DNA of 64,000 nucleotides from an uncultured Pseudomonadales bacterium (GTDB lineage: Bacteria; Patescibacteriota; Microgenomatia; UBA1400; PJMF01). Below, piece after piece: positions 188 to 60,834 of the stretch. A program made the position numbers and the translations under genes. The notes below the pieces were generated by a model. That model was not told the DNA's origin. It searched no databases and worked only from the letters and a program-made list of their open reading frames with translations. How positions within the stretch are numbered: position 1 is the first letter of the stretch; each line of letters begins with the position of its first letter. The DNA is taken from assembly GCA_964620965.1 (NCBI GenBank), contig CAZUHV010000001.1:85839-149838 (forward strand), written 5' to 3'.

Positions 188-215
188 TTTATCTAATGTA
201 ATTTTATTTTTCGTG

Positions 216-286
216 ATCCCGAACTAGGATTCGAACCTAGGATAACTGTGCCAGAAACAGTTGTGATGCCACTTCACTATTCGGGA
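216..286 (-). tRNA. tRNA-Gln (anticodon CUG)
   Basis: Hand-folded cloverleaf on the minus strand. Acceptor TCCCGAA/TTCGGGA with a U1-A72 pair (typical of bacterial tRNA-Gln). D stem GTGA/TCAC. Anticodon stem ACTGT/ACAGT with loop TTCTGGC. T arm CTAGG-TTCGAAT-CCTAG. CCA is not encoded. Confidence 0.8.
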
Positions 287-12670: not shown

Positions 12671-14083
12671 TTATTCTTGTTCAGGCAGTACAACTTTTAT
12701 GTGTAGTTCTTTGAGTTGCTCTTCACTAACTTCTGCTGGAGCTCCCATCACTGCAGTTCTTCCTGTAGAAGTCATAGGAAATGCTATTGCCTCTTTAAGT
12801 GATGTTTCACCAGCAAGCAGCATTACCAAACGATCTAAACCTAAAGCGATTCCACCATGTGGAGGAGTTCCAACTTCAAATGCTTCAAGCATGTGACCAA
12901 CACCTTCTTGAATTTCTTCTTCTGAATAACCCATTATTTTGAATGTAGCTTTTAAAACTTCAGCCTTATGAGCACGAATGCTTCCACCACCAGCTTCATA
13001 TCCATTACAAACTAAATCATATTGAGCTGTAACGATTTCTCCAATATTTTCACCTTTTAGATGTTGCTCTACATGTTCAGGAATCGGGGTTGAAAATGGA
13101 TTATGTGTAAATGTCCAGCCACTCTTGCCATCTGCAACTTCCGCTTTATCTGCTGTATCAACTTTCTTAAAAAAAGGAAAACTCACAACCCAAGCAAAGG
13201 CTAAAACACCTTCTTCTTTTTCTTTTTCAGTTCTTAAATCAAACTTATCTGCACCAAACTGTTTGATTGCCTCTTCATAAGTGAAAACTGGGAATGTTTC
13301 GTCTTTGAGCTTTCCTCCGACTGCTTTGACTGCATATTTTGTCATAGCTTCAACGGTGTTCATCACATCTTTTTGCTCAACAAAACTCATTTCTAAGTCA
13401 AGTTGTGTAAATTCAAAACCTCTATCTGCACGAAGGTCTTCATCACGAATACAACGTGCAACTTGAAAATAGTTTTCTACTCCTGCTGTCATCAAAAGCT
13501 GTTTATATTGCTGTGGACTTTGAGGTAATGCATAGAACTTTCCAGGATTAAATCTTGATGGAACAATAAAGTCACGAGCGCCTTCTTTAGTTGCTAATGA
13601 AAGCATTGGTGTTTCTACCTCAACAAAATCTTGCTTAAACAAATATTCTCTGAAAGCTTGAATAAGTGCAGAACGCATTCTTAAGGTTTTACGCATTCTC
13701 TCTCTTCGAAGATCGAGGTATCTGTATTTTAAGCGAACTTCTTCTTTAACCTCATATCCATCACCCTCAACTTGAATTGGAAGCTCTTTTGCTTTGTTAA
13801 GGATTTCATACTCTTGAACTTCAATCTCAACCGTTCCAGTTTCTGAATCTTTATTAATCATTCTTTCTGGACGGGCTTTAACTAATCCCTTAATGGAAAC
13901 TACTGATTCTGGAGTTAAGTCTCCCATCATTTGAAAACCTACGCATTGTACAGAAGCTGTATAGTCTCTTAAATCAATAAAAGTAATCTTTCCATGATCT
14001 CTTTTTGTAGAAACCCAACCTTTAAGTGTTACTGTTTCACCAACTAATTCTGGTGTTTGTTTAATTAATGTACGTTTTGACAT
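12671..14083 (-). CDS. aspS: aspartate--tRNA ligase (archaeal/eukaryal-type class IIb, AspRS)
   Basis: QSPQ flipping-loop motif (LPQSPQQYKQ). Motif 2 FQVARCIRDEDLRADRGFEFTQLDLE. Motif 3 GGGSIRAH...GLDRLVML. The ORF track starts at 14128, but the AAGGAG RBS is positioned for the ATG at 14083 (MSKRTL). Confidence 0.8.
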   Translation of the reverse strand: MSKRTLIKQTPELVGETVTLKGWVSTKRDHGKITFIDLRDYTASVQCVGFQMMGDLTPESVVSIKGLVKARPERMINKDSETGTVEIEVQEYEILNKAKELPIQVEGDGYEVKEEVRLKYRYLDLRRERMRKTLRMRSALIQAFREYLFKQDFVEVETPMLSLATKEGARDFIVPSRFNPGKFYALPQSPQQYKQLLMTAGVENYFQVARCIRDEDLRADRGFEFTQLDLEMSFVEQKDVMNTVEAMTKYAVKAVGGKLKDETFPVFTYEEAIKQFGADKFDLRTEKEKEEGVLAFAWVVSFPFFKKVDTADKAEVADGKSGWTFTHNPFSTPIPEHVEQHLKGENIGEIVTAQYDLVCNGYEAGGGSIRAHKAEVLKATFKIMGYSEEEIQEGVGHMLEAFEVGTPPHGGIALGLDRLVMLLAGETSLKEAIAFPMTSTGRTAVMGAPAEVSEEQLKELHIKVVLPEQE

Positions 14084-14125
14084 ACATCTCCTTTTATCAA
14101 CAGGCTCTTTTTTGCAAAAATGATA

Positions 14126-14295
14126 CAAAAAAACACGTCTTGTGCCCTACTACGTTGAAAGGGCTCTTGGACGTGCGTCAAAAGCGGTGCCACCTTATCT
14201 AATACTTTATTCCTGCTATCACGGGCTTACCCGGGTTAAAAAACCTACGCAGTTTGTTTTTATACAAACACTGGTCTATTGTCAGAAGACTCTCT
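14126..14295 (-). ncRNA. T-box riboswitch leader (candidate Asp specifier GAC) upstream of aspS
   Basis: On the minus strand there is a T-box consensus AAGGTGGCACCGC. It is followed by terminator hairpin CACGTC...GCCC-tttcaacgtagta-GGGC...GACGTG plus a U7 run ending 40 nt before the aspS RBS. The upstream stem-I region has an AGAGA motif and a loop containing GACA. A promoter TTGATA-18-TAAAAT lies at 14301..14330. Confidence 0.6.
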
Positions 14296-14482
14296 AGCGT
14301 ATTTTATTTTGCTAAAAAGTATTGTATCAAATAAATTACTAGATTGCATTCATAAAATAAAAAGCTATAATCAGGAACTGAAAAATATGACCCTTCTACA
14401 AACCACACACAAGCAACAAATGATTACCCTTTTTAGTAATAAGGTGCGGGTTTGATTGGAAAAAAATAGTATAGAAAAAAAA

Positions 14483-14508
14483 TGAAAACCCGCCAAAATA
14501 GGCGGTTT
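14483..14508. terminator. bidirectional rho-independent terminator hairpin
   Basis: CCGCC-aaaata-GGCGG stem with an A-run on one side and a T9 run on the other. On the minus strand it would stop the recJ transcript before the aspS promoter and T-box region. Confidence 0.45.
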
Positions 14509-14521
14509 TTTTTTGAAAAAA

Positions 14522-14893
14522 ATGAGAACGACAATAGAACAAAAAATAACTTCTCCTCCTGAAATTGATCTTGCTACAAAAAAAGCAGAAATTAGTGCAA
14601 GGAAAAAAGAGAAATATAAAAAAAGATTAGAACAAGCATATGCTGAATACGAAGTAATCCGTGCAGAGTTTTTAAGAAGGATTGCTCAAGAAGCTGGGAT
14701 TACAATCAATCAACTCAATGATCCAGAAACTATGGATTGGGCACTCAAAAAAATACGATATCAAGAAATAAAACCTGCGGTCATTAAGGGATCAAAAAGT
14801 GATCCTAGAGTAAAAGCAGAACGAAAAAAAGGTTACGCTCAAAAAATAAGAAGAAAAAGACTCAAACAACTAGGTCGTTTGTATATCTTTTAA
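14522..14893 (+). CDS. hypothetical small basic protein
   Basis: The ORF track starts at TTG 14513, but ATG 14522 (MRTTIEQ) is more plausible. Lys/Arg-rich. Its 3' end overlaps convergent recJ by 24 nt. Confidence 0.4.
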   Translation: MRTTIEQKITSPPEIDLATKKAEISARKKEKYKKRLEQAYAEYEVIRAEFLRRIAQEAGITINQLNDPETMDWALKKIRYQEIKPAVIKGSKSDPRVKAERKKGYAQKIRRKRLKQLGRLYIF

Positions 14894-16549
14894 AATAACT
14901 TGAGGATATTTTTTTTCTCTCCATTCATTGATATCGAGAGTACCAATAAGTGATATTTTTGAGTTTACTTTTAAATCAGAATAAAAATCGCTCATTCTCC
15001 AACCCAAACAATCAAAAGCTGTTGCACCAGAGTTATCAAACTCCTGAACTTTAAGTTTAATATGCTCTTGTTCCTTACCAATTTTTTTTATTTCTAAAAC
15101 TTTTAGGTTTTTGATTTCAAAAACTGGTTGCACATTCGCCATACCATATGGAGCAAACTCTGAAAGTGACTCTATTGTTGCAACAGATATAAGCTGAACA
15201 GGAATCTCACACTCAACTTCTATTCCTCTTTCTAATTGAGATTTTTTTATTTTCTCATTTGCCAACTGAAACAATCTCTTTTTTATAGTTTCTAATTTTT
15301 CTGGCAAAAAGCTAAACCCGGCAGCCATTGGATGACCGCCTACAGAAACCAAATCATCTCTAATTTCTCTGAGAATTTCTGTAATATTTACTTCCTGTAT
15401 TGATCTTGCGGAGGCTTTTGCTAAATCTGCTCCTAGTGAAATTGCAATCGATGGTTTGTAGTATTTTTCTGATAAACCTCCAGCAATTAAACCAAGTATT
15501 CCCTCATGATATTTTTCTGAGTGCACAATAATGAGGTTCTCAGTAATAATCTCAGAAACTTGTAACATGGCATCATCAAGCATTTCTTTTGTAAGATCTT
15601 GTCTTGTTACATTTGTGGCCTGTAAAATACTAGCCAGTTCTTCTGCCTGTTTTTTATTCTTAGTGCACAATAAGCGCAAAGCATCAAGACCATGTTCGAG
15701 TCTTCCCATTGCATTAATTCGCGGGGCAATAACAAAACCAATTGTCCCTTCTGTAATCTCTGTCTGTTTAACTTGGGAAACTTTACAGAGCTCAAGAATA
15801 CCCAAATTTTTGCTTTTACGTAAAGCTTTTATACCAAATGTTGCAAAACTCCTGTTTGCCTTTAAAAGTGGCACTTGATCAGCTATCGTTGCAATACCAG
15901 CTAAATCAAGCAGTTGCTCTGCATATTCTGCATCTAAACCTTTTGCAAGCATCCAAGAAACTGTTGCTCCACATAACTGGGTTGTATGCACAATATGAGT
16001 AGCAAGAGGAAAAATTTCTGTTTCACCTTTTTTTTCTGGTTGATGATGATCTGTGACAATAACGGCAATACCTTTATCCCGTGCATATTGAACAGCCTCG
16101 TGGGCAACAATACCATTATCAACCGTTATGATCAGATCTGGGTTATAACTTGTAACAATTTCATCTATGGCAACTTGAGTAATTCCATAGCCATGTTTTT
16201 CTCTGTGAGGAATAAACGGAGCAGGATGCTTTTTACCTTCTGGATGATGAGTTTTATAGAGTTTAAACAGTACTTGCCATAAAATGGCACTCGCACAAAT
16301 TCCATCTACATCATAATCTCCAAAAATAACAATTCTTTTATCTTCTTTTAGAAACTTTTTAATAAGTTTTAATGCTCCAGAATATTCTGCTTCTGAAATT
16401 TTGAGTTGTGACACCGAAAAATCAACAGGATTTTTTGGATGTAAAAACTCTTCAGTATCTTCTTTTTGTATATTTCTATTCTTAAATACAACTTTCAAAA
16501 GAGATTCTATAGTTTTTGGAACCACATTAGATTTTTTATGCCACTTCAT
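14870..16549 (-). CDS. recJ: single-stranded-DNA-specific exonuclease RecJ (DHH/DHHA1)
   Basis: DHH motifs FGDYDVDGICASAIL, DHHQ (VTDHHQP), and GGHPMAAG in the DHHA1 domain. Confidence 0.85.
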   Translation of the reverse strand: MKWHKKSNVVPKTIESLLKVVFKNRNIQKEDTEEFLHPKNPVDFSVSQLKISEAEYSGALKLIKKFLKEDKRIVIFGDYDVDGICASAILWQVLFKLYKTHHPEGKKHPAPFIPHREKHGYGITQVAIDEIVTSYNPDLIITVDNGIVAHEAVQYARDKGIAVIVTDHHQPEKKGETEIFPLATHIVHTTQLCGATVSWMLAKGLDAEYAEQLLDLAGIATIADQVPLLKANRSFATFGIKALRKSKNLGILELCKVSQVKQTEITEGTIGFVIAPRINAMGRLEHGLDALRLLCTKNKKQAEELASILQATNVTRQDLTKEMLDDAMLQVSEIITENLIIVHSEKYHEGILGLIAGGLSEKYYKPSIAISLGADLAKASARSIQEVNITEILREIRDDLVSVGGHPMAAGFSFLPEKLETIKKRLFQLANEKIKKSQLERGIEVECEIPVQLISVATIESLSEFAPYGMANVQPVFEIKNLKVLEIKKIGKEQEHIKLKVQEFDNSGATAFDCLGWRMSDFYSDLKVNSKISLIGTLDINEWREKKYPQVILKDIQTT

Positions 16550-16629: not shown

Positions 16630-18216
16630 ATGGTAACTATAGAAAAAATTACAGTTTCAATAGAAGCACTCTATATTTTATATTGTCTGCAAAAACAAAA
16701 ATATGAGGGGTATATTGTTGGAGGAGCTGTCCGCGACACCTTAAGAGATTCTTTACTGTCAAAAAAACTTGATTCAACAAAAATGCTTACCGCTTCTGAC
16801 TATGATTTCACAACAAATGCAAAACCAGAAGAAATCCAAACTATTTTTCCAGAAAACTTTTATGATAATGTTTTTGGTACTGTTGGGATCGCTCAAAAAC
16901 ACCTCCTAGAGCAAATGGGCAAACCAGTTGATCCTAAAATTGAAGAAAAAACTGACCAAAATAACCAGGTGATCAATTTAGACTCTGCAACAAAAATTCA
17001 TGAATCTTTACAAAACTCTAACTCTGAGACAAAAAACTTTGAAAAAAAACAAAAAGATATCTATGAAATAACTACGTTTCGTTCTGATGGCGTGTACAAC
17101 GACCACAGAAGACCAGAAACTGTAACTTGGGGAAACACATTACAAGAAGACTTAAGTAGGAGAGATTTTACTATAAATGCAATGGCAATTAAAATTTCTC
17201 AATCATTTTTAGAAACAATAGATTTTGCAACCGCACAACCAGCTCTAACAGTAACAACAGAAAATTATGAAATTATAGACCTTCATAATGGAATGGAAGA
17301 TCTTGAATCTGAAATTATCAAAACAGTTGGTAATCCAAATAAACGTTTTACTGAAGATGCCTTAAGAATGCTTCGAGCAATTCGATTTTCTGTTCAGTTA
17401 AATATGCAGATTGATGAAGAAACTTTTGAAGCGATTCTCAAAAACTCACATCTGCTTCAACATATTAGCTATGAAAGAATTAGCGATGAGTTTTTAAAAA
17501 TGATTGGAAGTGAGTTTCCTAAAGAAGCAATACAAATTTTGGATGAAACAAAACTCCTAGAATATATCATTCCAGAACTTCTAGATGGAAAAGGAGTCAA
17601 GCAAGGTGGTCATCATACTACCGACGTTTGGACCCACAACCTTGATGCAATTGCTAGTTGCCCTTCTCTAGACCCAATCGTTCGCTTAGCAACTCTCTTG
17701 CACGATATTGCAAAACCTCATACCTATAAAGAAATAGATGGCAAGCCAACATTTTATAACCACGAGATTATTGGTTCGAGAATAGCAAAAAATATTGCTA
17801 GAAGGTTACGGCTCTCAAAAAGTGATGTTGAAAGGGTATTCACTCTAGTTAGATATCACATGTTTTACTATCAGCCAGATCACACAGATGCTTCTATTAG
17901 AAGGTTTATGAGAAAAGTCGGATTAGAGAACATAAATGATATTTTAGATTTACGTGAAGCAGATAGGCTTGGAAGTGGAGCCAAAAAAACAAGTTGGAGA
18001 CTCGAAGAAATGAAAGAAAGAATGGTTTCTCAACTTCACCAACCATTTGCCATAAAAGATTTAGCAATCAATGGACATGATATTATGGATACTTTTAGGA
18101 TAAAACCTGGTCCTGAACTTGGAAAAATTTTAAATGATTTATTTGAAAAAGTTTTAGAAAATCCAGAATTGAACACAAAAGAAATTTTGCTTAAAGAAGT
18201 TGAAAAAATGCTCTAG
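16630..18216 (+). CDS. cca: CCA-adding tRNA nucleotidyltransferase / poly(A) polymerase family with HD domain
   Basis: Pol-beta NTase head GGAVRDTLRD...DYDFTT with RxxRFxxQL. C-terminal HD motif (LLHDIAKP). An unusually long insert lies between the head and neck. Confidence 0.8.
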   Translation: MVTIEKITVSIEALYILYCLQKQKYEGYIVGGAVRDTLRDSLLSKKLDSTKMLTASDYDFTTNAKPEEIQTIFPENFYDNVFGTVGIAQKHLLEQMGKPVDPKIEEKTDQNNQVINLDSATKIHESLQNSNSETKNFEKKQKDIYEITTFRSDGVYNDHRRPETVTWGNTLQEDLSRRDFTINAMAIKISQSFLETIDFATAQPALTVTTENYEIIDLHNGMEDLESEIIKTVGNPNKRFTEDALRMLRAIRFSVQLNMQIDEETFEAILKNSHLLQHISYERISDEFLKMIGSEFPKEAIQILDETKLLEYIIPELLDGKGVKQGGHHTTDVWTHNLDAIASCPSLDPIVRLATLLHDIAKPHTYKEIDGKPTFYNHEIIGSRIAKNIARRLRLSKSDVERVFTLVRYHMFYYQPDHTDASIRRFMRKVGLENINDILDLREADRLGSGAKKTSWRLEEMKERMVSQLHQPFAIKDLAINGHDIMDTFRIKPGPELGKILNDLFEKVLENPELNTKEILLKEVEKML

Positions 18217-34151: not shown

Positions 34152-34225
34152 GGCCCCATCGTCTAGCGGTTAGGACACCAGGTTCTCATCCTGGTAACCA
34201 GAGTTCGATTCTCTGTGGGGTCACC
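34152..34225 (+). tRNA. tRNA-Glu (anticodon CUC)
   Basis: Acceptor GGCCCCA/TGGGGTC. D arm TCGTCTAGCGGTTAGGACA. Anticodon stem CCAGG/CCTGG with loop TTCTCAT. T arm AGAGTTCGATTCTCT. Discriminator A then CC encoded. Confidence 0.8.
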
Positions 34226-35743
34226 TAAAGCAACACCCTGTGTATTAAAGTTAAATAATGATTGATACATAGGGTTTATTTCAGGGTTCAATGTTCCATT
34301 AAAGTCATATGTGACACCTTTGGGAAAGATTGAACCAAATAAAGCTTTTATCTGAGGTACGGTCGATTTTTTGTACGTAGCTCCTAAATCACTCAAAGTT
34401 TCTTTTATAAAAGCTGTTAGCTTGTTGATATCATATTTTTCAAGCGTTGAGTCTGCTTTGGCAACATGAGCTTTCTGTAGTTTATTCTCTATTAATGCGT
34501 TTTGTTCCATGAATATTTCATCGGTATACACACCCATCATGTTTTTTTGCACCAACACTTTTCTCATATCTTTGAGTCTTTGAATTTCATCATCTGCTAC
34601 GTTTTTGGCTTTCTTTACATTGGCAAGCCTCCTTTCATATTCTTCAACTACATACTGTGTAAATAACTCAATACATTCTTTACTTGGTGAAATGGATCTC
34701 AACAATCGAACCACTTCTTCATCTAACTGTTCAGCTCTAATAGAAGCGGCCTGACATTTAGTAGAACATCGGTAGTATGGATACTTTTTACTTCTACCTT
34801 TACTCCAACCAGCAGTTATTCCTTTGCCACACTCAGAACACTTAACAATCCTTCTTAACGGAAATGTTTTATTATTTCTAACTCGTTTTGTATTTACTAC
34901 AGGTTTAAAAACTCTTCTACCATCTAAAGCATCCTGAACTTTATAGAACTGTTCTAATGAAATCATTGGCCTGTGTTGACCTTGGACTTCTTCTTTATAA
35001 GTATCTGACGTCAAAATTCCTGCATAAAATTTATTACGAAGCATTCGTTGAACGGTAGGCACCTTTAATTTTATTCTTTTGCCTTTATGAACAGTGTATA
35101 AGCCCAGCTCGTTCATGATTTTCGTTATTTCAATGAGGCTTTTGTTTCCAAGCGCCATCAAATCCCACGCCTGCACCATCTTGTCCCATGATTCTGGGTC
35201 TTCGATTGGAAATTTGTTAACATCCATCATGTACCCAAGTGGAGGTTTTCTTGTGATTAATCCAGACTTGAACCTTGCATACATGCCATTTCTTGTTCTC
35301 TCGCTGCGTACATCATTATCATGCTGAGCAAAACTGGCCATGATAGTTTCTAGCAGTGTATCTGTTGGAGACGTTCCTGTGGGTTCTGAGGCTGAAATTA
35401 GCTGTATATTATTGCTGATCAAGGTCTTTCTGATTGAAAGATAATCTGAAGTTTGTCGAGAAAGTCGATCTAGTCTGTAGATAATAACAGCACCAAGCGT
35501 TCTTTTATTTTTCTTGCAATAATGCAGTAACTCGACTAATTCTGGACGACCAGCTATAGTTTTGGCAGACTTACCTTCCTCACGAAATATTTTGATAACT
35601 TTCAAGCCTTTTCTAATAGCTTCTTTTCGACACAGTTCTTCTTGAGTATCTAATGAAAAATTATCAACTTGCTCTTCGGTTGAAACTCTGAGGTAAATAA
35701 TTGCATCAGTTTTAGTAGTATTTTGAGCTTTATTTCTAGTCAT
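34163..35743 (-). CDS. large serine recombinase (resolvase catalytic domain, recombinase domain and zinc ribbon)
   Basis: IIYLRVSTEEQ catalytic Ser motif. Recombinase domain. Zinc ribbon CSECG...YYRCSTKC. C-terminal coiled coil. The last about 21 codons are encoded antisense to the 3' two-thirds of tRNA-Glu. Confidence 0.8.
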   Translation of the reverse strand: MTRNKAQNTTKTDAIIYLRVSTEEQVDNFSLDTQEELCRKEAIRKGLKVIKIFREEGKSAKTIAGRPELVELLHYCKKNKRTLGAVIIYRLDRLSRQTSDYLSIRKTLISNNIQLISASEPTGTSPTDTLLETIMASFAQHDNDVRSERTRNGMYARFKSGLITRKPPLGYMMDVNKFPIEDPESWDKMVQAWDLMALGNKSLIEITKIMNELGLYTVHKGKRIKLKVPTVQRMLRNKFYAGILTSDTYKEEVQGQHRPMISLEQFYKVQDALDGRRVFKPVVNTKRVRNNKTFPLRRIVKCSECGKGITAGWSKGRSKKYPYYRCSTKCQAASIRAEQLDEEVVRLLRSISPSKECIELFTQYVVEEYERRLANVKKAKNVADDEIQRLKDMRKVLVQKNMMGVYTDEIFMEQNALIENKLQKAHVAKADSTLEKYDINKLTAFIKETLSDLGATYKKSTVPQIKALFGSIFPKGVTYDFNGTLNPEINPMYQSLFNFNTQGVALGDPTENRTLVTRMRTWCPNR

Positions 35744-49997: not shown

Positions 49998-52213
49998 ATT
50001 TTCTCAAGCAAACTTAAAAAGTCGTCTAATTTCTGTATTTTTTCAGGTTCATTCAACTTCATGATTTCGTGTTGATCATGCATATGTTCATGCCAGTTAT
50101 TTTCTAAAATATCATCTTTAACCAAACACTTGTCACCAATTTTTTCTAGATATGCAGAAATACTCCCCTCAGAAAGAGTCTTTTCATCCAAAGAGAAATA
50201 ATACTTGTGTCTCAAAATTCTTTCCAAGCACTTACGTACCTTACCAATTGCTTCATCAACATTTCTATTGTTATCAACTGAATCTTTAATAAACTTTACG
50301 CTTTTGAAAAATTCTTCCTCAATAACGTTTTCCACATCACACTTTACTATGCTAGAGCCTGCAGAACCTGAGTTTTTAATTTGAAGAAATTTGGTTTCAT
50401 TTTTTGGTATTTTGCTTTGCAATCTAGCCAAAAAGCTATCATCATGAGTAAGTATAATTACCTGCTCTGGCTCTTCATTTGATTGATTTTTAATTTTGAC
50501 TATAGTCCTAACCAACGCGTCCTTGCGATTTGAATCTAAACTTGAAAAAGGATCGTCAAAGACAACAATTTTTTTGTTTAAAAATTTATCTGTTTGTAAT
50601 TTTGATATAAAAATTGCAATTGCCAACAATCTTCTATCGCTATCACTTAACGTATTCCCAAAGTAATATTTATCCTTAGGCTCAATGTCGTCCTGAGATC
50701 TTTTATTTGAAATAGGAACAACTTGACTGCCAAATGCAAATTCGTAGTCAACAAAATGTGATTTTGATCTAGTTAAGTTCGAGCGACTATCTAATTTCTG
50801 TATTGAGAACTCTGCCCTAAGTTCATTTTTCAATACTTTTTCAATTTCTTTTTGATTATCTACAATTGTTTTTTTTGTCTCCTGATTAATTTCGTCTCTT
50901 AGGTTTTTCACTTCCTTCTTCTTGTCTTTGATGAGTTTTTCTGCATCAAAATAGTCTTTTGTTAAACTCACTCCTTCTTTGCTATGCCTGTATTTAGATA
51001 GCTTTAACTTTTTTAACTGATTTAGTAAATTTCGATAATCTTGTTCAGAGAATTCCTGTTTAAGTATTGAATCAAATACAGGGTGAAGTTTTTTAATTTC
51101 AATCAAGAATAATTGAAATGGTTTATCTTTTGAGATTAAATCAATCGAATAGTTTAAATTCTTTAATTTTTTATCAATTTCTTTGTCTAGATCCGCTTTA
51201 TTTTCCAGTAACTCCTTCTTATTTAACAATTCATCACAGTTAATTCCTAGAGGGTTAAGTTTTGCTATTTCTGCTTCAGGATCAAATCGCAAAAAGTTTT
51301 CTCCCGCTGATTCAATTTCTTTTTGAACTTGTCTATACGTTGCGCCAAAAACGCTCTTAAAATCTTTTATTAAATCTTTTACAGGCTCTAAGTCTTGCCC
51401 ACAAAAAACACAGTTTTTAGACTCATCTTTTAAGATAGCAACACCTTCTGAAATAAAATTCTTAGATGCACTTGCGTCTTTCCAATGATTATGAATATGA
51501 TTTTCAATGCTTACTTCAGCTGAAGTATCTAACGATTTCTCCATTGCTAACTTAAAGTTCTCAAATTTTGACGCCAATGGGGAATGCTTAATCTGTTCCT
51601 TAATTGATGAAATATTATTTAGGCGTTTAATTTCTGTTTCTTTTTTTGAAATTTTGTCATCAACACTCTCTACTTTTTCTGCTTTAAGAAATTCCTCAAA
51701 AGTTCCCAGATCAACTTTTATATATTTATTTTTTACTTTGTCTCTATCACTTTCTAAATCTGCTTGTTCATTACGAAGCCTCTTGAGAGCAAGTACTTTA
51801 TCACCTATGTTTTCTCCTACAAATATTCCATGAAGTGAAGCTTTATGTTCAAAATCAATTTGATCTCCTAGATAAACGTAATTTTGAACAAAGTTACTAT
51901 CAAATACAACAATATTTGGATTACTCCAGTTACCGTTTGATAGAGTGGAATGTTTATTATTTTCATCCAAAATATCAATCTCAGAACTTTCTGAATATCC
52001 GAAAGTCTTTTTACCCTTCAACAATCCTTGATCAGAATTTTTTAAGGATCTAAATATCGTTGTCAAAGTGCTTTTGCCATAAGTGTTATGTCCAAAAATA
52101 ACAGTTCTTTTGAAAAAACGTAATTCATCATCTCCAGAACATGTAAATTGCTTGAACTTTCCAATTCCTTTGATTTTTATAATTTTACTAATCATTTTTT
52201 CCCTTACTACCAC
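49994..52213 (-). CDS. RloC/PrrC-like ABC-type ATPase with coiled-coil zinc-hook insert, putative restriction-linked anticodon nuclease
   Basis: Walker A FGHNTYGKSTL. Long Lys/Glu coiled coil containing CVFC (CxxC hook). D-loop/Walker B VVFDDPFSSLD. C-terminal R-x3-H (RILRH) and a His cluster. Co-operonic with hsdR. Alternative start at 52195 (MISKIIKIKG). Confidence 0.55.
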   Translation of the reverse strand: MVVREKMISKIIKIKGIGKFKQFTCSGDDELRFFKRTVIFGHNTYGKSTLTTIFRSLKNSDQGLLKGKKTFGYSESSEIDILDENNKHSTLSNGNWSNPNIVVFDSNFVQNYVYLGDQIDFEHKASLHGIFVGENIGDKVLALKRLRNEQADLESDRDKVKNKYIKVDLGTFEEFLKAEKVESVDDKISKKETEIKRLNNISSIKEQIKHSPLASKFENFKLAMEKSLDTSAEVSIENHIHNHWKDASASKNFISEGVAILKDESKNCVFCGQDLEPVKDLIKDFKSVFGATYRQVQKEIESAGENFLRFDPEAEIAKLNPLGINCDELLNKKELLENKADLDKEIDKKLKNLNYSIDLISKDKPFQLFLIEIKKLHPVFDSILKQEFSEQDYRNLLNQLKKLKLSKYRHSKEGVSLTKDYFDAEKLIKDKKKEVKNLRDEINQETKKTIVDNQKEIEKVLKNELRAEFSIQKLDSRSNLTRSKSHFVDYEFAFGSQVVPISNKRSQDDIEPKDKYYFGNTLSDSDRRLLAIAIFISKLQTDKFLNKKIVVFDDPFSSLDSNRKDALVRTIVKIKNQSNEEPEQVIILTHDDSFLARLQSKIPKNETKFLQIKNSGSAGSSIVKCDVENVIEEEFFKSVKFIKDSVDNNRNVDEAIGKVRKCLERILRHKYYFSLDEKTLSEGSISAYLEKIGDKCLVKDDILENNWHEHMHDQHEIMKLNEPEKIQKLDDFLSLLEKI

Positions 52214-55047
52214 TCAAACATATCTACTATATTCTCAATAGCACTCCTCACACGATCGATGATGCTTTGACGTTCTAAAATTCTTGGGGCTTCTGGGAGA
52301 AGATCAACAATATCTTGTCCATGTGGAAGTTTTTGTGTATATAAATACTCGCCAATAATATTTTCAAACTTTTCTAGTGGAATATTTTCAGCTTGTGCTA
52401 CTTCTCGCAGTGCAGAGGAGCGTTCACTTGCCCAGAATTTCTCAAAGGCTTCTTCAACATTTTCATCTTCTCTGATCTTAGGTAGATTCTCCTCAATAAA
52501 TTTACGGATAAGTTCTTTCTTTTTGCGAAGCTTCACATCGCGATCAAATAATCTGAGAATATCTTCTGTTTTCTTCTCACGAACTACATCTGAACTAATG
52601 TCTTTAAGTCCAGCAATAAGCTGAATAATGTAGTCAAAATCAACTACATCACGAACAGTGAGCTCTAATTCAAAGTCGATTTGATCCAAAATGGATTCTT
52701 TTTCAGGCTCATGAGTTTTTCTTTCCTCATGAATATCAAGATACTTACTTTGGTAATCATAAAATTCTTGTTCTGTAATACCCAAGTCATCAAATGAGAA
52801 TTCTGCAAAGGTTTCGAGTGAAGACTTAATTCGAAGCAAATCTCTAAAGCTTTTAACAAATGCAGCCTTATCTTCTTCACCTCGCAAATCATCAACTGAA
52901 GAAACAGTAGGTACTTTTACTCGTAAGTGAGCAAGCTTTTCTTCAAACTCCTTTTTCTGAACTTCATATGGCTTCTTGAAAACAACTTCCTTAGCGTTTT
53001 CATCACCAAACAAAGCAAGAGCTTTGTCAGTATTCAGTTTAAGGTTTCTAAAAGAAACAATGTTTCCATGCGGTTTGTCAGAGTTCAGCAAACGATTTGT
53101 TCTGGAATAAGCCTGGATTAGTCCGTGATATCTCAAATTCTTATCAACGTACAAAGTGTTGAGTCTTGGGCTATCAAATCCAGTTAAGAACATGTTTACC
53201 ACAATAGTTAGATCAACTTCTTTGTTTTTAATTCGCTTCTGTAGATCTCGATAATAGTCATAGAATCTGTCAGTAGAGTAATTTGTGCCGAAATCCTTGT
53301 TGTAGTTTTTGATACAGCTTTCTAAGAAATCTCTTGAATGCTGATTTATCACATCACCCTTATCAGCAAACACGTCAACATCAAGCATGTCTGCACTATC
53401 ATCCTCATTTGCTTGATAGGTAAAAATTGTAGCGATTTTAAAATCATCAGGTTTCTTAGCAGAAAGCAGAGTGTAGTATTTCTTTAATATCTCAATACTT
53501 GGAGTGCAAAAAAGAGCATTAAACTTGCCATTCTTTGTTTTACGCTTCCAATCATGAAGGATATATTCAGCAATTTTTTCTATTCGCTCATCACTTTCGA
53601 GAACTTCTTTGGTGTCAATACCTTCAACCATAGTTTCAGCAAAGATGTCAGCATCTAGAGTATCAGGGTCTTTTTTCTTGTACTTACCAACATACTCAAC
53701 TGCAAAACCAAGCACATTATTGTCATCAATAGCGTGGGTAATAATATAGCGGTGCAAGCATTCACCAAATACATCTTTTGTAGTTACACCACCAACATTG
53801 TTATCAGCAAATATCGGTGTTCCAGTAAAACCAAAGAGTTGAGCTTTATTAAAATGACTCTTTATTCTATTGTGGGTTAATCCAAACTGACTGCGGTGAC
53901 ACTCATCAAAAATAATGACTACTTTTTCATCTTGCAGATCTTCAAATTGTTTAAGATACGATTCTCTGGAAACTGCAATATCTAGCTTTTGGATTGTAGT
54001 AACTATGAGTTTTCTCTTTGGCTCTTTAAGCTGTTTTACTAAGTTACGAGTATTATCCGTTCCATCAACAGAACCATCAGAAAAGTGATTAAACTCTTTT
54101 GTTGTTTGAATATCGAGGTCTTTACGATCAACTACAAAGATAACTTTTTTAATTTCGGGTAACTGTGAAAGAATCTGACTGGCTTTGTATGAAGTCAAGG
54201 TTTTTCCAGAACCAGTGGTATGCCAAATATAGCCATTCTGGTTAGTTTCTTTAACCTTTTGCTCAATAGCTCTGACTGCATAGTACTGATAAGGGCGGAG
54301 TACCATTGGAATTTTAAGAGATTCATGCAACACAATATATTCAGCAATCATGGATGAGATTTTGCATTTTTCTAAAAACGCCTCAGCAAATTGATTAAGT
54401 TGTGTAATTTTTTTGTTTTCTTCATCTGTCCAATAGAAGGTTTGTTCAAATGATTGCTTTGGATTATTAGAAAAGTATTTTGTGTTTACACCATTAGAGA
54501 TAATAAAAATCTGGACGTATTCGAATAAAGTTCCTGAAAAAGAATGTTTGTGATAGCGTTGAATCTGATTGAAAGCCTCCTTCATTTCAACGCCACGGCG
54601 TTTGAGCTCAATTTGCACTAAGGGAAGACCATTTATGAGAAGGGTAACGTCATAGCGATTTTCATACCTTCCAGCTTGAGTGACTTGATTTGTGACTTGG
54701 TACTCATTCTTGCACCACTTATCCATGTTGAAAAATCGAACCCAGAACTTTGTCTCATCATCACGAGTCAGCACAAATCTATCTCGCAAAGTTTTTGCTT
54801 TTACAAAGCGGTCACCTTTTTCAAGATGATTGAGTATGCGAGAAAATTCGGTATCAGAGAAAATTGTGTTGTTAAACTTTTCTAGTTGTGACTTAAGATT
54901 TTGATTTAATGACTCTACATCTGGCAAAGAAACCCTATCAAAACCCAAGTTTCCAAGTTGTGCTATTAATTCGTTTTCTAGTTGTAGTTCTGATTGCGCC
55001 ATAATTTTATCTATACAAACATTTGTTGTAACAGTCCCTTTTTCCAC
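52207..55047 (-). CDS. hsdR: type I restriction enzyme R subunit
   Basis: SF2 helicase motif I GYIWHTTGSGKTLTS. DEAH box FDECHRSQ. N-terminal nuclease region. The likely true start is 55002 (MAQSELQ). Confidence 0.85.
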   Translation of the reverse strand: MEKGTVTTNVCIDKIMAQSELQLENELIAQLGNLGFDRVSLPDVESLNQNLKSQLEKFNNTIFSDTEFSRILNHLEKGDRFVKAKTLRDRFVLTRDDETKFWVRFFNMDKWCKNEYQVTNQVTQAGRYENRYDVTLLINGLPLVQIELKRRGVEMKEAFNQIQRYHKHSFSGTLFEYVQIFIISNGVNTKYFSNNPKQSFEQTFYWTDEENKKITQLNQFAEAFLEKCKISSMIAEYIVLHESLKIPMVLRPYQYYAVRAIEQKVKETNQNGYIWHTTGSGKTLTSYKASQILSQLPEIKKVIFVVDRKDLDIQTTKEFNHFSDGSVDGTDNTRNLVKQLKEPKRKLIVTTIQKLDIAVSRESYLKQFEDLQDEKVVIIFDECHRSQFGLTHNRIKSHFNKAQLFGFTGTPIFADNNVGGVTTKDVFGECLHRYIITHAIDDNNVLGFAVEYVGKYKKKDPDTLDADIFAETMVEGIDTKEVLESDERIEKIAEYILHDWKRKTKNGKFNALFCTPSIEILKKYYTLLSAKKPDDFKIATIFTYQANEDDSADMLDVDVFADKGDVINQHSRDFLESCIKNYNKDFGTNYSTDRFYDYYRDLQKRIKNKEVDLTIVVNMFLTGFDSPRLNTLYVDKNLRYHGLIQAYSRTNRLLNSDKPHGNIVSFRNLKLNTDKALALFGDENAKEVVFKKPYEVQKKEFEEKLAHLRVKVPTVSSVDDLRGEEDKAAFVKSFRDLLRIKSSLETFAEFSFDDLGITEQEFYDYQSKYLDIHEERKTHEPEKESILDQIDFELELTVRDVVDFDYIIQLIAGLKDISSDVVREKKTEDILRLFDRDVKLRKKKELIRKFIEENLPKIREDENVEEAFEKFWASERSSALREVAQAENIPLEKFENIIGEYLYTQKLPHGQDIVDLLPEAPRILERQSIIDRVRSAIENIVDMFEW

Positions 55048-56237
55048 TCTTTTGCTTCTTTTATTTGGTTAACTTTTAATTCTATTAACTGGTCAATGGA
55101 TGAAACAAAATCAACGATTTTTGCTTGTTCTTCTTCGGAAGGATATGGTATCGGCATATCCATTAAATCTGAGGTTGATATTGCCATACGGTCGTGACGT
55201 GCTCCGTAGTTTGCAACTTTTTTCATATATTTATGCCAAAGACTAGTGTCGAAATATTTTTCATAAAAATACTTGTTTCCTTTTTTCAATTCAAGAACTG
55301 TATATAATGGAGACATTACACCAGTTTGGAGTGAATTCATTTTCATAGGACCAACGGGAGCACTTGTTGATATTCTAGGGTTGTATACAAAGTCATCAAT
55401 TTCAACAACATAATAATTCATTAAATTATTCTGATTCACAATATCTCTATCAAAATAATCATTTTGGCTCACAATCCCTTCTGAAGCTGAATTAGTCAAA
55501 ACATGATTTATTTTATTGTTAGTATTCTTTTTTGTTTTTCTTAAAAAAATATCTTTGAGTTTTCTCATTTCCCAATCTGGGTATTTTTTACTATCTTTAC
55601 CATTAAATCTTAATTCTTTTGTAAAAATCTTTTGAGTCATTCCTTTCTTATATTCTTCAAGCGTATCCTTTTGTTTTTCTAGGTTAATAATCCAACCATT
55701 TATTGTTGATAAAAAAGATGCCAATTTTTTTTGTTCGTCAATGGTTGGAATATTTACTTTAATTGATGAAAAATTTTCATAGAATAAGTATTGTCTTACT
55801 CCACCCTCAACATATCTTTTGACAAATCTATTAAATAAGTCAGACTTAAAAAAATGATACATAAATATATCATCAACATTGTCTGTTGTTGAAAAACAAA
55901 CATAAAGTGAGCTAATGATGACATTGTCTAAATCACCACTAAATCCAATGGAACCCACATTTATTCTGGCAGGGTTATATGCAAATGTATTTCTCTTAAC
56001 TACTTTATACATTGAAGTATCATAATTTCTCTCATTACTATCAAGTCCATCAAATTGTTCAGATTGTGGTAAAAAACCTCTTACATTATTAATCGAATAT
56101 ATTGGATATTTTTTTCCACTTTTATTTTTATTATTTTTTTTCTTTGTAATCTCACCAAGTTTATATTGAGTCCACATTCCAAAGAATCCTGGGAACCTCA
56201 ATTGTGGCTTTGCTTGCATATTTTTACTACTTTTCAT
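55011..56237 (-). CDS. hsdS: type I restriction-modification specificity subunit
   Basis: Two target-recognition domains separated by conserved helical spacers (LEKQKDTLEEYKKGMTQKIF ... LKVNQIKEAKEWKKGLLQQMF). Confidence 0.8.
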   Translation of the reverse strand: MKSSKNMQAKPQLRFPGFFGMWTQYKLGEITKKKNNKNKSGKKYPIYSINNVRGFLPQSEQFDGLDSNERNYDTSMYKVVKRNTFAYNPARINVGSIGFSGDLDNVIISSLYVCFSTTDNVDDIFMYHFFKSDLFNRFVKRYVEGGVRQYLFYENFSSIKVNIPTIDEQKKLASFLSTINGWIINLEKQKDTLEEYKKGMTQKIFTKELRFNGKDSKKYPDWEMRKLKDIFLRKTKKNTNNKINHVLTNSASEGIVSQNDYFDRDIVNQNNLMNYYVVEIDDFVYNPRISTSAPVGPMKMNSLQTGVMSPLYTVLELKKGNKYFYEKYFDTSLWHKYMKKVANYGARHDRMAISTSDLMDMPIPYPSEEEQAKIVDFVSSIDQLIELKVNQIKEAKEWKKGLLQQMFV

Positions 56238-57816
56238 ACTTAAAAGGATTGTCTATTCCTAACTCATCACAAAATGTATCTAGTTCTTTTCTATATTTTT
56301 GTTCTTTATGTTGATAATCTTTCAAATTTTTTGCAACTAGATCTAAATCCACAGGCTCTTCCTCTTCAAATGAATCAATATATCTAGGTATATTGAGATT
56401 AAAGTCATTTTCATATATCTCTTTCAGACTAACTCTACGAGAATATTTATCAACTTCTTTTCTTTCATTATATGTATGAAATATTTTATCAATGTGACTA
56501 TCACTAAGACGGTTTTGTGTGCCAACCTTTTCAAATTCGCTTGATGCATCAATAAAAAAAATATCATCATCTTCTTGTCTGCATTTTTTGAAAACTAATA
56601 CTATCGTTGGGATGCCTGTTCCATAAAACAAGTTTGCTGGCAAGCCAATAACAGCATCTAAGTAATTTTGCTTCTCAATAATATATTGTCTAATAGTTGC
56701 ATTTGACCCTCCAGTGAAAAGCACGCCATGTGGCAAAATAACAGCCATAGTTCCATTTTCGGTCAGGTGGTAAAGCATATGTGTCACAAATGCATAATCA
56801 GCTCTACTTTTAGGAGCTAACCTTCCATATTGTGAAAACCTTTCATCATGTAACAAAGCTGGATCTGACTCTCCCTTCCATTTTGCTGAAAATGGAGGAT
56901 TGGCTACCACTGCCTCAGCTTGCAGATCTATGTGCATATCATCTGTAAGCGTGTCACCTTGTCTAATGCTGAAATGATCAAAGTGAACTCCATGAAGGAT
57001 CATATTCATGCGAGCTAAGTTGTATGTAGTCGGGTTAAGCTCTTGTCCATAATAGGAAACTACGTCTGCATACTCACCAATTCTTAAGAGAAGAGAACCA
57101 GATCCACAGGTTGGGTCATAGACTGATTTAACTCGTTTTTTGCCATGAGTCACAATCTTTGCAAGAAGTCTAGAAACTTGAGCTGGAGTATAGAACTCTC
57201 CGCCTTTTTTACCTGCCCCTGCGGCAAACTCACCAATTAGATACTCATATGCATCACCAAGCAAGTCACTTTTTGTGTCTTCAAGTTTAAAATCAATACC
57301 ACTAAGCAGAGTCAGCACTTCAACAATTACTTCATTCTTTTTGTTTTCTGACTTACCCAACTTGGTTGAAGTTAAATCTACGTCATCAAATAATCCTTTG
57401 AAATCATCTTCGCTAGCTGTTCCCATTGAGGTTTGCTCAATAGAGTTAAGGACATTCTTGAGGTTTTCTAAAATAAAAATATCTTGACCTTTAACTTCAC
57501 CATTACCTTTTCTGACAATGTAAGAAAAAAGCTCTGTAGGTTTGAGGAAAAAGCCTAAGTGATCAATGGTAGCTTTTTTAATATGCTCGACAATCTGTTG
57601 ACCTTCGTCAGTTGAGTCATCTACCTCAGCAAAAGAGAATTTTTCACTAGCCAGAAGTTTTTCATCAATATAGCGAGCAAGTTTTTCTGAAAGATATTTA
57701 TAGAAAATGAAGCCAAGAATATAGTTTTTATATTCGTCTGCATTCATTTTTCCCCGGAGAACATTGGCTACAGCCCAAAGTTGCTTTTCAAGTAATCGTT
57801 TTTGTTCTCCAGACAT
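56227..57816 (-). CDS. hsdM: type I restriction-modification N6-adenine DNA methyltransferase subunit
   Basis: N-terminal HsdM_N (LWAVANVLRG). SAM motif DPTCGSGSLL. Catalytic NPPF (VANPPFSAKW). Confidence 0.85.
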   Translation of the reverse strand: MSGEQKRLLEKQLWAVANVLRGKMNADEYKNYILGFIFYKYLSEKLARYIDEKLLASEKFSFAEVDDSTDEGQQIVEHIKKATIDHLGFFLKPTELFSYIVRKGNGEVKGQDIFILENLKNVLNSIEQTSMGTASEDDFKGLFDDVDLTSTKLGKSENKKNEVIVEVLTLLSGIDFKLEDTKSDLLGDAYEYLIGEFAAGAGKKGGEFYTPAQVSRLLAKIVTHGKKRVKSVYDPTCGSGSLLLRIGEYADVVSYYGQELNPTTYNLARMNMILHGVHFDHFSIRQGDTLTDDMHIDLQAEAVVANPPFSAKWKGESDPALLHDERFSQYGRLAPKSRADYAFVTHMLYHLTENGTMAVILPHGVLFTGGSNATIRQYIIEKQNYLDAVIGLPANLFYGTGIPTIVLVFKKCRQEDDDIFFIDASSEFEKVGTQNRLSDSHIDKIFHTYNERKEVDKYSRRVSLKEIYENDFNLNIPRYIDSFEEEEPVDLDLVAKNLKDYQHKEQKYRKELDTFCDELGIDNPFKYEK

Positions 57817-60239: not shown

Positions 60240-60834
60240 CAAAATTAGCTCTCGTAACCAAATTGCTATCAAAGAAGTTCGTGATGGAATCTTGGTTCTA
60301 CCAAATAACGAACACCGACTGATTATTGAAACTTCCTCAGTTAACTTTGAGCTTAAAAGTGAAGCGGAACAAGATGTATTAATTGATAGCTTTCAAACAT
60401 TTCTAAACTCACTGCCCTCTCAACTGCAAATCCTGATTCGCATTCGTGAAGTAGATATTGACCAATACGTTGATTCCATTGATCTACTCAAAGAAACGGA
60501 AGATGAAAAGCAATACATAGAACAAATTAATGACTACACTCAATTTATTCGCCAACTCGTATCTGGCAACAAAATCTTGTCTCGCAAGTTTTACATCGTC
60601 CTACCTTACAAACCGGAAACCAAAGGCAATACTTTTGAGCTAGCCCAAGCTCAACTCAATTTAACTCAAGATATGGTAATTAAAGCTCTAGAAAAACTAG
60701 GAATGAAGGCAAGGAAGCTCGATAGCTTAGAAGTTTTACATCTCTTTTATAGCTTCTACAACAAGGGACAGATAAAAACTCAGGAATTAACCAGCACTAC
60801 TATGAAAGCAATACTACAACACAACTATGTTTAA
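60214..60834 (+). CDS. VirB4 N-terminal domain protein (split VirB4, part 1)
   Basis: Pattern AIKEVRDGILVLPNNEHRLIIETSSVNFELKSEAEQ...FQTFLNSLPSQLQI resembles the VirB4/TcpF N-terminal domain. Its stop overlaps the next start (ATGTTTAA). Confidence 0.45.
   Translation: MWLLKKSLNKISSRNQIAIKEVRDGILVLPNNEHRLIIETSSVNFELKSEAEQDVLIDSFQTFLNSLPSQLQILIRIREVDIDQYVDSIDLLKETEDEKQYIEQINDYTQFIRQLVSGNKILSRKFYIVLPYKPETKGNTFELAQAQLNLTQDMVIKALEKLGMKARKLDSLEVLHLFYSFYNKGQIKTQELTSTTMKAILQHNYV

Follow-up and report, generated by a model that had tools for sequence, protein, structure and literature searches.

A probable reduced T-box leader upstream of aspS in a Patescibacteria genome belongs to a large group of leaders overlooked by standard annotation

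Introduction

Is the gene aspS, encoding the aspartyl-tRNA synthetase (AspRS) of a Patescibacteria (Candidate Phyla Radiation, CPR) bacterium, controlled by a T-box? The question is raised by an intergenic leader on the minus strand of a 64,000-nucleotide (nt) stretch of contig CAZUHV010000001.1, referred to here as the window. A first-pass annotation, made from the sequence alone, proposed a T-box with an Asp specifier and an antiterminator and terminator in front of aspS. All of the sequence features that it listed are present on the minus strand between 14127 and 14330 (minus strand read from 14345 to 14075). Judging from sequence comparison, the leader is very probably a genuine T-box transcription attenuator of aspS, specific for tRNA(Asp). 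It has sequence and structural homology to T-boxes, and the core of the proposal is borne out by alignment to the Rfam T-box model RF00230, a match to a covariance model of related leaders (R1), agreement of the specifier triplet with the downstream gene, and helix covariation. It is unusually reduced in form and belongs, with many similar leaders, to a large group overlooked by standard annotation.

The specifier loop and the family of related leaders

Stem I of the aspS leader (helix P2) pairs GUCUU (14290-14286) with UAGAC (14278-14274), as placed by the R1 alignment and covariation. Its terminal loop, CUGACAA (14285-14279), presents the triplet GAC (14283-14281) followed by the purine A (14280), the specifier loop that had been proposed. 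The sequence GGTGGCACC is found 85-220 nt 5' of aspS in nine of 80 CPR aspS loci, always in the UGGC form. Inspected by eye, these nine leaders have in common an antiterminator/terminator pair, a IIA/B-like element (CGGGUAAGCCCGU.AUAGC) and a small hairpin with a YUGACAN loop; the helices flanking this hairpin differ between loci. Metagenome contigs were scanned with a pattern for the IIA/B element and the T-box core only, so that Stem I was unselected. Many of the resulting 120 loci have the same small hairpin with other loop triplets.

The covariance model R1 was built from five leaders, all located before serS (alignment A3). This five-sequence seed, used with Infernal, replaced two MAFFT alignments (alignments A1 and A2) in which Stem I and Stem II were misaligned. 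Among 81 genome sources, R1 matches the aspS leader over its full model length (14183-14303, minus strand) with 50.6 bits and an E-value of about 3e-11; other matches in these sources are L028 (83 bits), L001 (63) and L002 (46). On the metagenome loci it recovers 55 leaders and then 26 further ones. CPR origin is established for the genome-derived leaders but not for all metagenome members.

R1 places the loop C-U-G-A-C-A-A of the aspS leader column for column on the C-U-U-C-C-A-A loops of Ser leaders, which fixes the register of the specifier. Downstream genes were named by NCBIfam and BLAST, and the triplets were tallied from the resulting tables. Across about 80 related leaders, the loop triplet agrees with the downstream synthetase: UCC or AGC before serS (about 17 leaders), AUC before ileS (8), UGG before trpS (4) and GAC before aspS (about 17, including distant forms of about 440 amino acids (aa)). 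Four further leaders before aspS (L029, L154, L084 and L141) have AAC. The triplet position read as the specifier in the aspS leader therefore tracks the identity of the gene throughout the family.

The family loop has the consensus Y-U-N-N-C-A-A, with C in 92% of leaders at the third codon position and A after the codon. A preference for NNC and a purine after the codon has been reported for T-box specifiers (TBDB preprint, 10.1101/2020.06.17.157016), and the loop matches this rule. With a 5-base-pair (bp) stem and a 7-nt loop in which U is the second nucleotide and the triplet is followed by A, P2 formally resembles an anticodon arm, and loop-loop pairing with the anticodon loop of the tRNA would therefore be a plausible source of affinity. 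In the aspS leader the closing pair of P2 is a U-U mismatch. The 5-bp Stem I hairpin and its 7-nt loop leave no room for the platform that contacts the tRNA elbow.

Antiterminator and terminator

The 3' half of the leader contains the T-box core AAGGTGGCACCGC (14196-14184) and the terminator, noted earlier as CACGTC/GACGTG around GCCC/GGGC with U7; both are present at 14196-14184 and 14176-14127, as had been read. In the RF00230 alignment, antiterminator helix A1 pairs AAGG (14196-14193) with CCUU (14162-14159) and helix A2 pairs GCUUU (14185-14181) with AGAGC (14167-14163), on either side of the 7-nt T-box bulge UGGCACC (14192-14186). The intrinsic terminator (14176-14133) has an outer helix GCACGUC/GACGUGU and an inner helix GCCCU/AGGGC, and is followed by U7 (14133-14127). 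Folding agrees with the proposed competition between the two structures, because the 5' arm of the terminator holds the 3' strands of A2 and A1 and the two are thus mutually exclusive. RNAfold gives -16.8 kcal/mol for the terminator compared with -2.2 kcal/mol for the antiterminator. A terminator much stronger than the antiterminator is the usual arrangement, in which expression is off by default, and both energies fall within the ranges reported for T-boxes (TBDB preprint, 10.1101/2020.06.17.157016).

The antiterminator is also a property of the family. A 4-bp A1, a 7-nt bulge and A2 can be formed in 59 of 68 distinct leaders, compared with 18.4 expected when the downstream sequence is shuffled. 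The pairs of A1 covary, occurring as AAGG/CCUU (22 leaders), GAGG/CCUC (18), AGGG/CCCU (9) and GGGG/CCCC (4). G73 is the discriminator base of bacterial tRNA(Asp), and this is the base predicted by the UGGC bulge, which is present in all nine CPR aspS leaders. A CPR tRNA-Ser in L064 likewise has G73, in agreement with UGGC in the Ser leaders.

These features bear on how the leader would be read out. T-boxes may also act on translation by sequestering the ribosome-binding site, as in the short-Stem-I T-boxes of actinobacterial ileS, and it is for translational T-boxes that a specifier in a hairpin loop and the lack of an elbow platform have otherwise been described (PMC7583486 section 6.2; TBDB preprint). 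For the aspS leader, however, such a read-out is very unlikely. The alternative hairpin is directly followed by U7, and a hairpin of -8 kcal/mol or lower followed by at least 5 U is found in 39 of 47 family leaders. The Shine-Dalgarno (SD) sequence AAGGAG (14093-14088; aspS ATG at 14083) is unpaired, lying 33 nt past the U-tract and outside both alternative structures. Translational read-out was rejected on these grounds in favor of attenuation of transcription.

Other helices, covariation and a close relative

A basal helix P1, ACGC (14300-14297) paired with GCGU (14250-14247), encloses P2, a second hairpin P3 and the junction UAGAGA (14296-14291) that lies between P1 and P2, the whole spanning 14247..14300. 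P1 is supported by covariation; P3, GUUUG[UAUAAAAA]CAAAC (14252..14269, with GUUUG at 14269-14265 and CAAAC at 14256-14252), is specific to the clade. Downstream are a reduced Stem II without an S-turn, GGUU[UUUU]AACC (14234..14245), and the IIA/B, F-box-like element (14209..14233), made up of Stem IIA, CGGG[UAAG]CCCG, and the tail UGAUAGCAGGAAU. RF00230 aligns Stem IIA and its tail to the IIA/F-box positions of the model. The IIA/B element is near-invariant in the family, with A, GC and GGAA of the tail 94-100% conserved. R1 parses P1, P3 and Stem II of the aspS leader differently, pairing UAC with GUG and taking P3 as Stem II. This parse is forced and was rejected; the three-way layout of P1, P2 and P3 is preferred because it is shared by the closest relatives (L001, L120, L151, L158, L112 and L002) and because P1 has a compensatory change.

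The sequence AGAGA (14295-14291), earlier noted as a Stem I motif, is present within this junction. It is not the canonical AG bulge of a distal Stem I; located immediately below a very short Stem I, it forms the 5' junction and is GA-motif-like. In the family this junction is K-turn-like, with GA before P2 and RA after it (A in 91% and 82%). Stem II of the family is either a 6-bp mini hairpin with the loop GGUNNNAA or an S-turn form, AAGAAC...AGUAGAA (about 12 of 81). The distance from Stem IIA to the T-box core is 23-27 nt in 51 of 68 members, which leaves no room for Stem III.

Covariation supports the helices across the family. In an alignment of 55 leaders, paired cells make up 95.7% and double changes are seen in 15 of 17 pairs, although this alignment was fitted to R1 and therefore somewhat favors the structure. 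The covariation score is 0.61, compared with 0.14 after shuffling of columns (0.61 was reached in 0 of 500 shuffles) and at most 0.11 with slid partners. All five pairs of P2 show compensatory changes, and all three pairs of P1 show double changes. An independent RNAalifold prediction recovers the four helices; in it, 14 of 16 pairs are compensatory.

A more direct comparison is provided by L139, a relative whose AspRS is 90% identical. There P1 changes from ACGC/GCGU to ACGU/ACGU, a compensatory replacement of C-G by U-A, and P3 is rebuilt as GUUCAA[GU]UUGAAC. The Stem II remnant is 3-4 bp in both leaders and differs by a change between U-A and U-G. The specifier loop, IIA/B element, T-box bulge, A1 and A2 strands and terminator arms are all unchanged. 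Compensatory changes in P1 and P3 together with unchanged functional motifs indicate, at the level of sequence, that the leader is under purifying selection.

Rfam scores, folding and alternative explanations

Several observations weigh against the reading of the leader as a T-box. Only two tRNAs in the window reach the Rfam gathering threshold, and RF00230, the scan of which had been proposed as a check, did not do so for the leader. In e-value mode it aligns over the full model at 14156-14362, where 16.2 bits stand against the 93 needed for gathering. With 4227 families searched, the E-values are 0.13-0.28 (0.13 on 276 nt), which by arithmetic (0.13/4227) comes to about 3e-5 for one family. 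Only the 3' part, AUAAGGUGGCACCGC with AAGG/CCUU and GCUUU/AGAGC, is aligned with high posterior probability; the 5' half is poorly aligned and extends upstream of any sensible transcript start. No T-box match at the gathering score was found in 10 CPR loci. The first-pass annotation had held that a score below threshold, combined with the lack of an antiterminator pairing, would speak against a T-box; the score is indeed below threshold, but a canonical antiterminator exists. Among 14 sampled relatives, seven score 42-54 bits with RF00230 (E-values 5e-9 to 5e-6) and are therefore T-box homologs by the Rfam model too, below its curated threshold.

Folding of the single sequence adds to these contrary points. 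The fold z-scores of the full leader (-1.7) and of the decoding domain (-0.8) are both unremarkable. In the minimum free energy (MFE) structure of the decoding domain, GUC pairs with GAC in place of P2, and the consensus structure lies 3.9 kcal/mol above the MFE. Single-sequence folding thus misses Stem I, and the structure rests on comparison rather than on energy. The junction of the aspS leader departs from that of the family on its 3' side, where CA and the P3 insertion are found compared with GA/AA in the family, while the 5' side has GA. The metagenome selection pattern was taken from the leader's own IIA/B element and T-box core, which builds a resemblance to the leader into the 3' half of R1; of the evidence, that from Stem I alone is independent of this pattern. 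Finally, no tRNA(Asp) gene was found in the window, in about 206 loci or in the DNA flanking both window ends.

Some of these points would also fit a chance resemblance, with GGTGGCACC occurring by accident in an ordinary intrinsic terminator or attenuator of AT-rich intergenic DNA. The motif GGTGGNACC alone is mildly unexpected, with one match in the window compared with 0.30 expected, and the sub-threshold Rfam score and unremarkable z-scores agree with such an origin. In combination, however, the features of the leader are far beyond chance. The R1 E-value of 3e-11 speaks against it, and order, spacing and covariation are kept over about 80 leaders whose specifier agrees with the gene. Together with the antiterminator counts, these results effectively refute chance resemblance, which we regard as exceedingly improbable.

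It is also unlikely that the leader is a decaying remnant of a T-box, with a constitutive or leaky terminator and expression of aspS independent of tRNA. Its RF00230 score is the lowest of those examined (seven relatives stand at 42-54 bits), its Stem II is down to 3-4 bp, Stem III is missing, P2 has its U-U closing mismatch, and the T-box core is absent from 71 of the 80 CPR aspS loci. Decay is nevertheless difficult to reconcile with a specifier loop, IIA/B element, bulge and A1/A2 that are intact and identical in L139 despite 10% divergence of AspRS, or with changes in P1 and P3 that are compensatory. A constitutive terminator of -16.8 kcal/mol before an essential single-copy synthetase gene would, in addition, be expected to be deleterious. 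A functional T-box attenuator therefore remains the preferred reading.

Promoter and proposed mechanism

The promoter proposed at first, TTGATA-18-TAAAAT (14330-14301), can be read in the sequence but was rejected. Promoter-like sites of this kind occur at chance level (3 observed, 3.2 expected in shuffles). The -10 box TAAAAT (14306-14301) stops one base before P1, so that a transcript starting from it would lack the 5' strand of P1, and a 3-nt indel in L139 would shift the spacer from 18 to 15 nt. The supposed -35 box TTGATA is part of an extended -10 element, TGATACAAT (14321..14329, minus strand), which aligns with TGGTAAAAT in L139 and is conserved there. The extended -10 pattern TGnTAnnnT is found 7-34 nt 5' of the leader in 26 of 41 family leaders compared with 1 of 41 control windows. 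On this sequence pattern, TGATACAAT is more likely to be the real promoter than the -35/-10 pair.

From the extended -10 element, transcription would probably start near 14314, about 14 nt upstream of P1. Binding of tRNA and dependence on its charge are, like this start, inferred from the architecture of the leader. As the leader is transcribed, the short Stem I loop C-U-GAC-A-A would present GAC to the anticodon GUC of tRNA(Asp), followed on its 3' side by the reduced Stem II and the IIA/B element. An uncharged tRNA bound in this way could pair through its 3' end (G73-C-C-A) with UGGC of the T-box bulge, stabilizing the weak antiterminator and allowing RNA polymerase to read into aspS. With a charged tRNA, or with none, the much more stable terminator hairpin with U7 would form and transcription would stop at about 14127.

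The aspS gene and its host lineage

The gene aspS with its SD sequence occupies 12671..14093 on the minus strand (ATG 14083, stop 12671) and encodes 470 aa. It had been described as archaeal-type, which the family models contradict. AspRS passes the bacterial aspS equivalogs PRK00476 (581 bits compared with a cut-off of 443) and TIGR00459 (506 compared with 374), the PRK00476 match falling in two stretches (NCBIfam). It fails the aspS_nondisc/archaeal-type models, scoring 206-234 bits compared with cut-offs of 353-368, and the archaeal-type assignment was rejected. Pfam finds the OB-fold and the class II core (tRNA-synt_2) alone, with no GAD domain. Based on these model matches, AspRS is a bacterial-type enzyme without the GAD insertion, which explains its short length.

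The best 80 genomic relatives of AspRS all belong to Patescibacteria (CPR) assemblies, and the host genome is accordingly placed in this group. The closest are metagenome-assembled genomes labelled "Patescibacteria group" (72-74% identity), followed by Dojkabacteria (63-66%); the CPR relatives span 50-90% identity.

Comparison with known T-boxes

Two classes of known T-boxes can be compared with the aspS leader and its family. In general, a T-box that acts on transcription needs a long Stem I, whose double T-loop platform contacts the tRNA elbow (PMC7583486, section 6.2). Short or "ultrashort" Stem I without a platform is described for translational T-boxes, mostly of actinobacterial ileS, for which the K-turn and the S-turn of Stem II are then essential; Stem III is described as indispensable for the discriminator domain (PMC7583486). 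In the actinobacterial class the specifier is located in the Stem I hairpin loop (TBDB preprint, 10.1101/2020.06.17.157016).

With the transcriptional T-boxes of Firmicutes (RF00230; B. subtilis tyrS and glyQS), the aspS leader shares the 7-nt UGGN bulge, the IIA/B element, an A1/A2 antiterminator competing with an intrinsic terminator and U-tract, an aminoacyl-tRNA synthetase gene as target, and a specifier codon followed by a purine with the NNC preference. It differs from them in having the specifier in the terminal loop of a 5-bp Stem I, whereas in Firmicutes it lies in an internal loop of a long helix. The AG bulge/distal-loop platform, Stem II S-turn and Stem III of the Firmicutes T-boxes are all missing, and the leader scores below the Rfam gathering score.

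The ultrashort-Stem-I T-boxes of actinobacterial ileS, known from M. tuberculosis and N. farcinica structures and summarized in PMC7583486 and the TBDB preprint, also lack the platform and carry the specifier in a hairpin loop. Like them, the CPR family has a K-turn-like GA junction just below Stem I, followed by Stem II and then IIA/B, and part of the family retains the S-turn AAGAAC...AGUAGAA. The read-out of the CPR leaders, unlike that of actinobacterial ileS, is an intrinsic terminator rather than SD sequestration, and their specificities include Asp, Asn, Ser, Ile and Trp rather than Ile only. Further differences are the mini Stem II with loop GGUNNNAA, nearly lost in the aspS leader, the 23-27 nt linker without Stem III, and the CPR/Patescibacteria host.

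Variation among the related leaders

The AAC (Asn) leaders before aspS are located at L029:3782-3906, L154:3119-3244, L084 and L141, and the gene in L084 encodes a full-length bacterial AspRS of 597 aa. By analogy, these leaders suggest control by tRNA(Asn) of a non-discriminating AspRS. An Asn-specifier T-box reportedly controls a non-discriminating AspRS/GatCAB operon in Clostridium acetobutylicum. The AAC leaders resemble this case; the aspS leader of the window, with its GAC (Asp) specifier, differs from it. Among the GAC leaders, those of L094, L134, L115 and L121 precede AspRS genes encoding 611-621 aa, with a C-terminal extension that looks like a YbaK/ProX-type deacylase by eye only.

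Ser-specifier leaders (UCC or UCA) are also found before genes other than serS (L116:200-315, L176:8693-8843, L182, L189, L166/L185 and L088/L147). These genes encode a serB-like HAD phosphatase, a histidine-phosphatase-family protein (with the start 'M.KILHLIRHAESEAN...') or a protein of 140-151 aa without a family match. The T-box context would predict roles in serine supply for them.

The ileS leaders with AUC carry a UGGC bulge (L102:9156-9264, L125:6004-6119, L135, L148, L161, L168, L184 and L179), and are a selected subset, as UGGC was part of the pattern used in the scan. A UGGU bulge would be expected from A73, the usual discriminator base of bacterial tRNA(Ile). Either the tRNA(Ile) in question has G73 or a mismatch is tolerated. 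T-box leaders with a UGGU bulge were observed before genes other than aspS at L048:3475-3774, where the leader precedes a small Cys-rich open reading frame (ORF), and at L079:190-288, where the loop is AAAACA and aspS lies about 860 nt downstream.

Dojkabacteria-type aspS leaders (L009:3591-3890, L011:3683-3982 and L015:3705-4004) contain a UGGC T-box core plus a terminator and lack the IIA/B element. In these leaders GAC apparently lies on the 3' side of an internal loop that follows a short hairpin, CCAAG[AGAUAGUGAGAA]CUUGG. They are a second, different reduced T-box layout within CPR.

In the window (14108-14133) and at the equivalent positions of L001, L028, L134 and L096, an A-run lies 3-13 nt past the terminator U-tract; in the relatives it stands directly before the SD sequence GGAG. 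The two runs may pair in read-through transcripts (UUUUUUU..AAAAAA), a hairpin that is seen on folding of the leader, or the A-run may simply be an A-rich SD context.

Other features of the window

The gene recJ (14870-16549) has its own terminator-like hairpin at its 3' end, CCGCC..GGCGG with a T-run (14490..14505, minus strand, from a terminator scan), which sets the aspS leader apart as a transcription unit of its own. The intervening ORF of 126 aa (14513-14893, plus strand) overlaps the end of recJ and has no family match, and is therefore unlikely to be a gene. The gene for a CCA-adding tRNA nucleotidyltransferase (16630-18216, plus strand) is located 2.3 kb from the T-box leader.

At a greater distance, mobile-element genes adjoin tRNA-Glu(CUC) (34152-34225), including a serine recombinase (34163-35743), the type I restriction-modification genes hsdR (52207-55047) and hsdM (56227-57816), a type IV secretion system pilin/TrbC-like gene, VirB4 (60827-62641) and an M23 peptidase. 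The region 34152-62641 resembles an integrative conjugative element with the tRNA-Glu gene as its insertion site. A variable island is present at tRNA-Gln(CUG) (window 215-286; region 1-380): samples with the neighbouring response-regulator gene in common carry different DNA beyond this tRNA. When L201:1-3700 and L202:1-5160 are compared, one sample has a phage-like block with an ERF recombinase and the other has genes for an IMS-family polymerase, a NUDIX protein and an acetyltransferase.

Implications

The architecture of the leader is unusual in that it combines a specifier in a terminal loop, and no elbow platform, S-turn Stem II or Stem III, with an intrinsic terminator. It is conceivable, though short of probable, that Patescibacteria harbor a large, undescribed class of minimal transcriptional T-boxes for at least Asp, Asn, Ser, Ile and Trp, which would bind the anticodon by loop-loop pairing without a platform and, in many members, without an S-turn or Stem III. 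If true, this would contradict the view that co-transcriptional T-boxes need a platform for fast tRNA capture. A hairpin-loop specifier joined to an intrinsic terminator without the platform modules makes the rule that assigns essential roles to the platform, Stem III and S-turn (PMC7583486) directly testable. At about 175 nt, these leaders also represent a very small form of natural T-box.

The Rfam thresholds miss these leaders (16-54 bits compared with 93), and one of the few cis-regulatory RNAs of the reduced CPR genomes has therefore gone unannotated. No paper linking T-boxes with Patescibacteria, CPR, Saccharibacteria or Parcubacteria was found in a search of incomplete coverage, in which the only matches dealt with T-box or T-bet transcription factors, so that an earlier mention is possible. 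The finding is worth more than a data point on distribution because the leader is one member of a large class of several specificities that curated models miss.

The proposed origin of T-boxes lies in the ancestor of Firmicutes, Actinobacteria, Chloroflexi and Deinococcus-Thermus (TBDB preprint, 10.1101/2020.06.17.157016). A diverse set of CPR T-boxes extends this known distribution. CPR have been proposed to lie near Chloroflexota, with which the presence of T-boxes in CPR would fit. CPR rely on their hosts for amino acids, and a direct read-out of tRNA charging would be a plausible way for these organisms to sense the supply.

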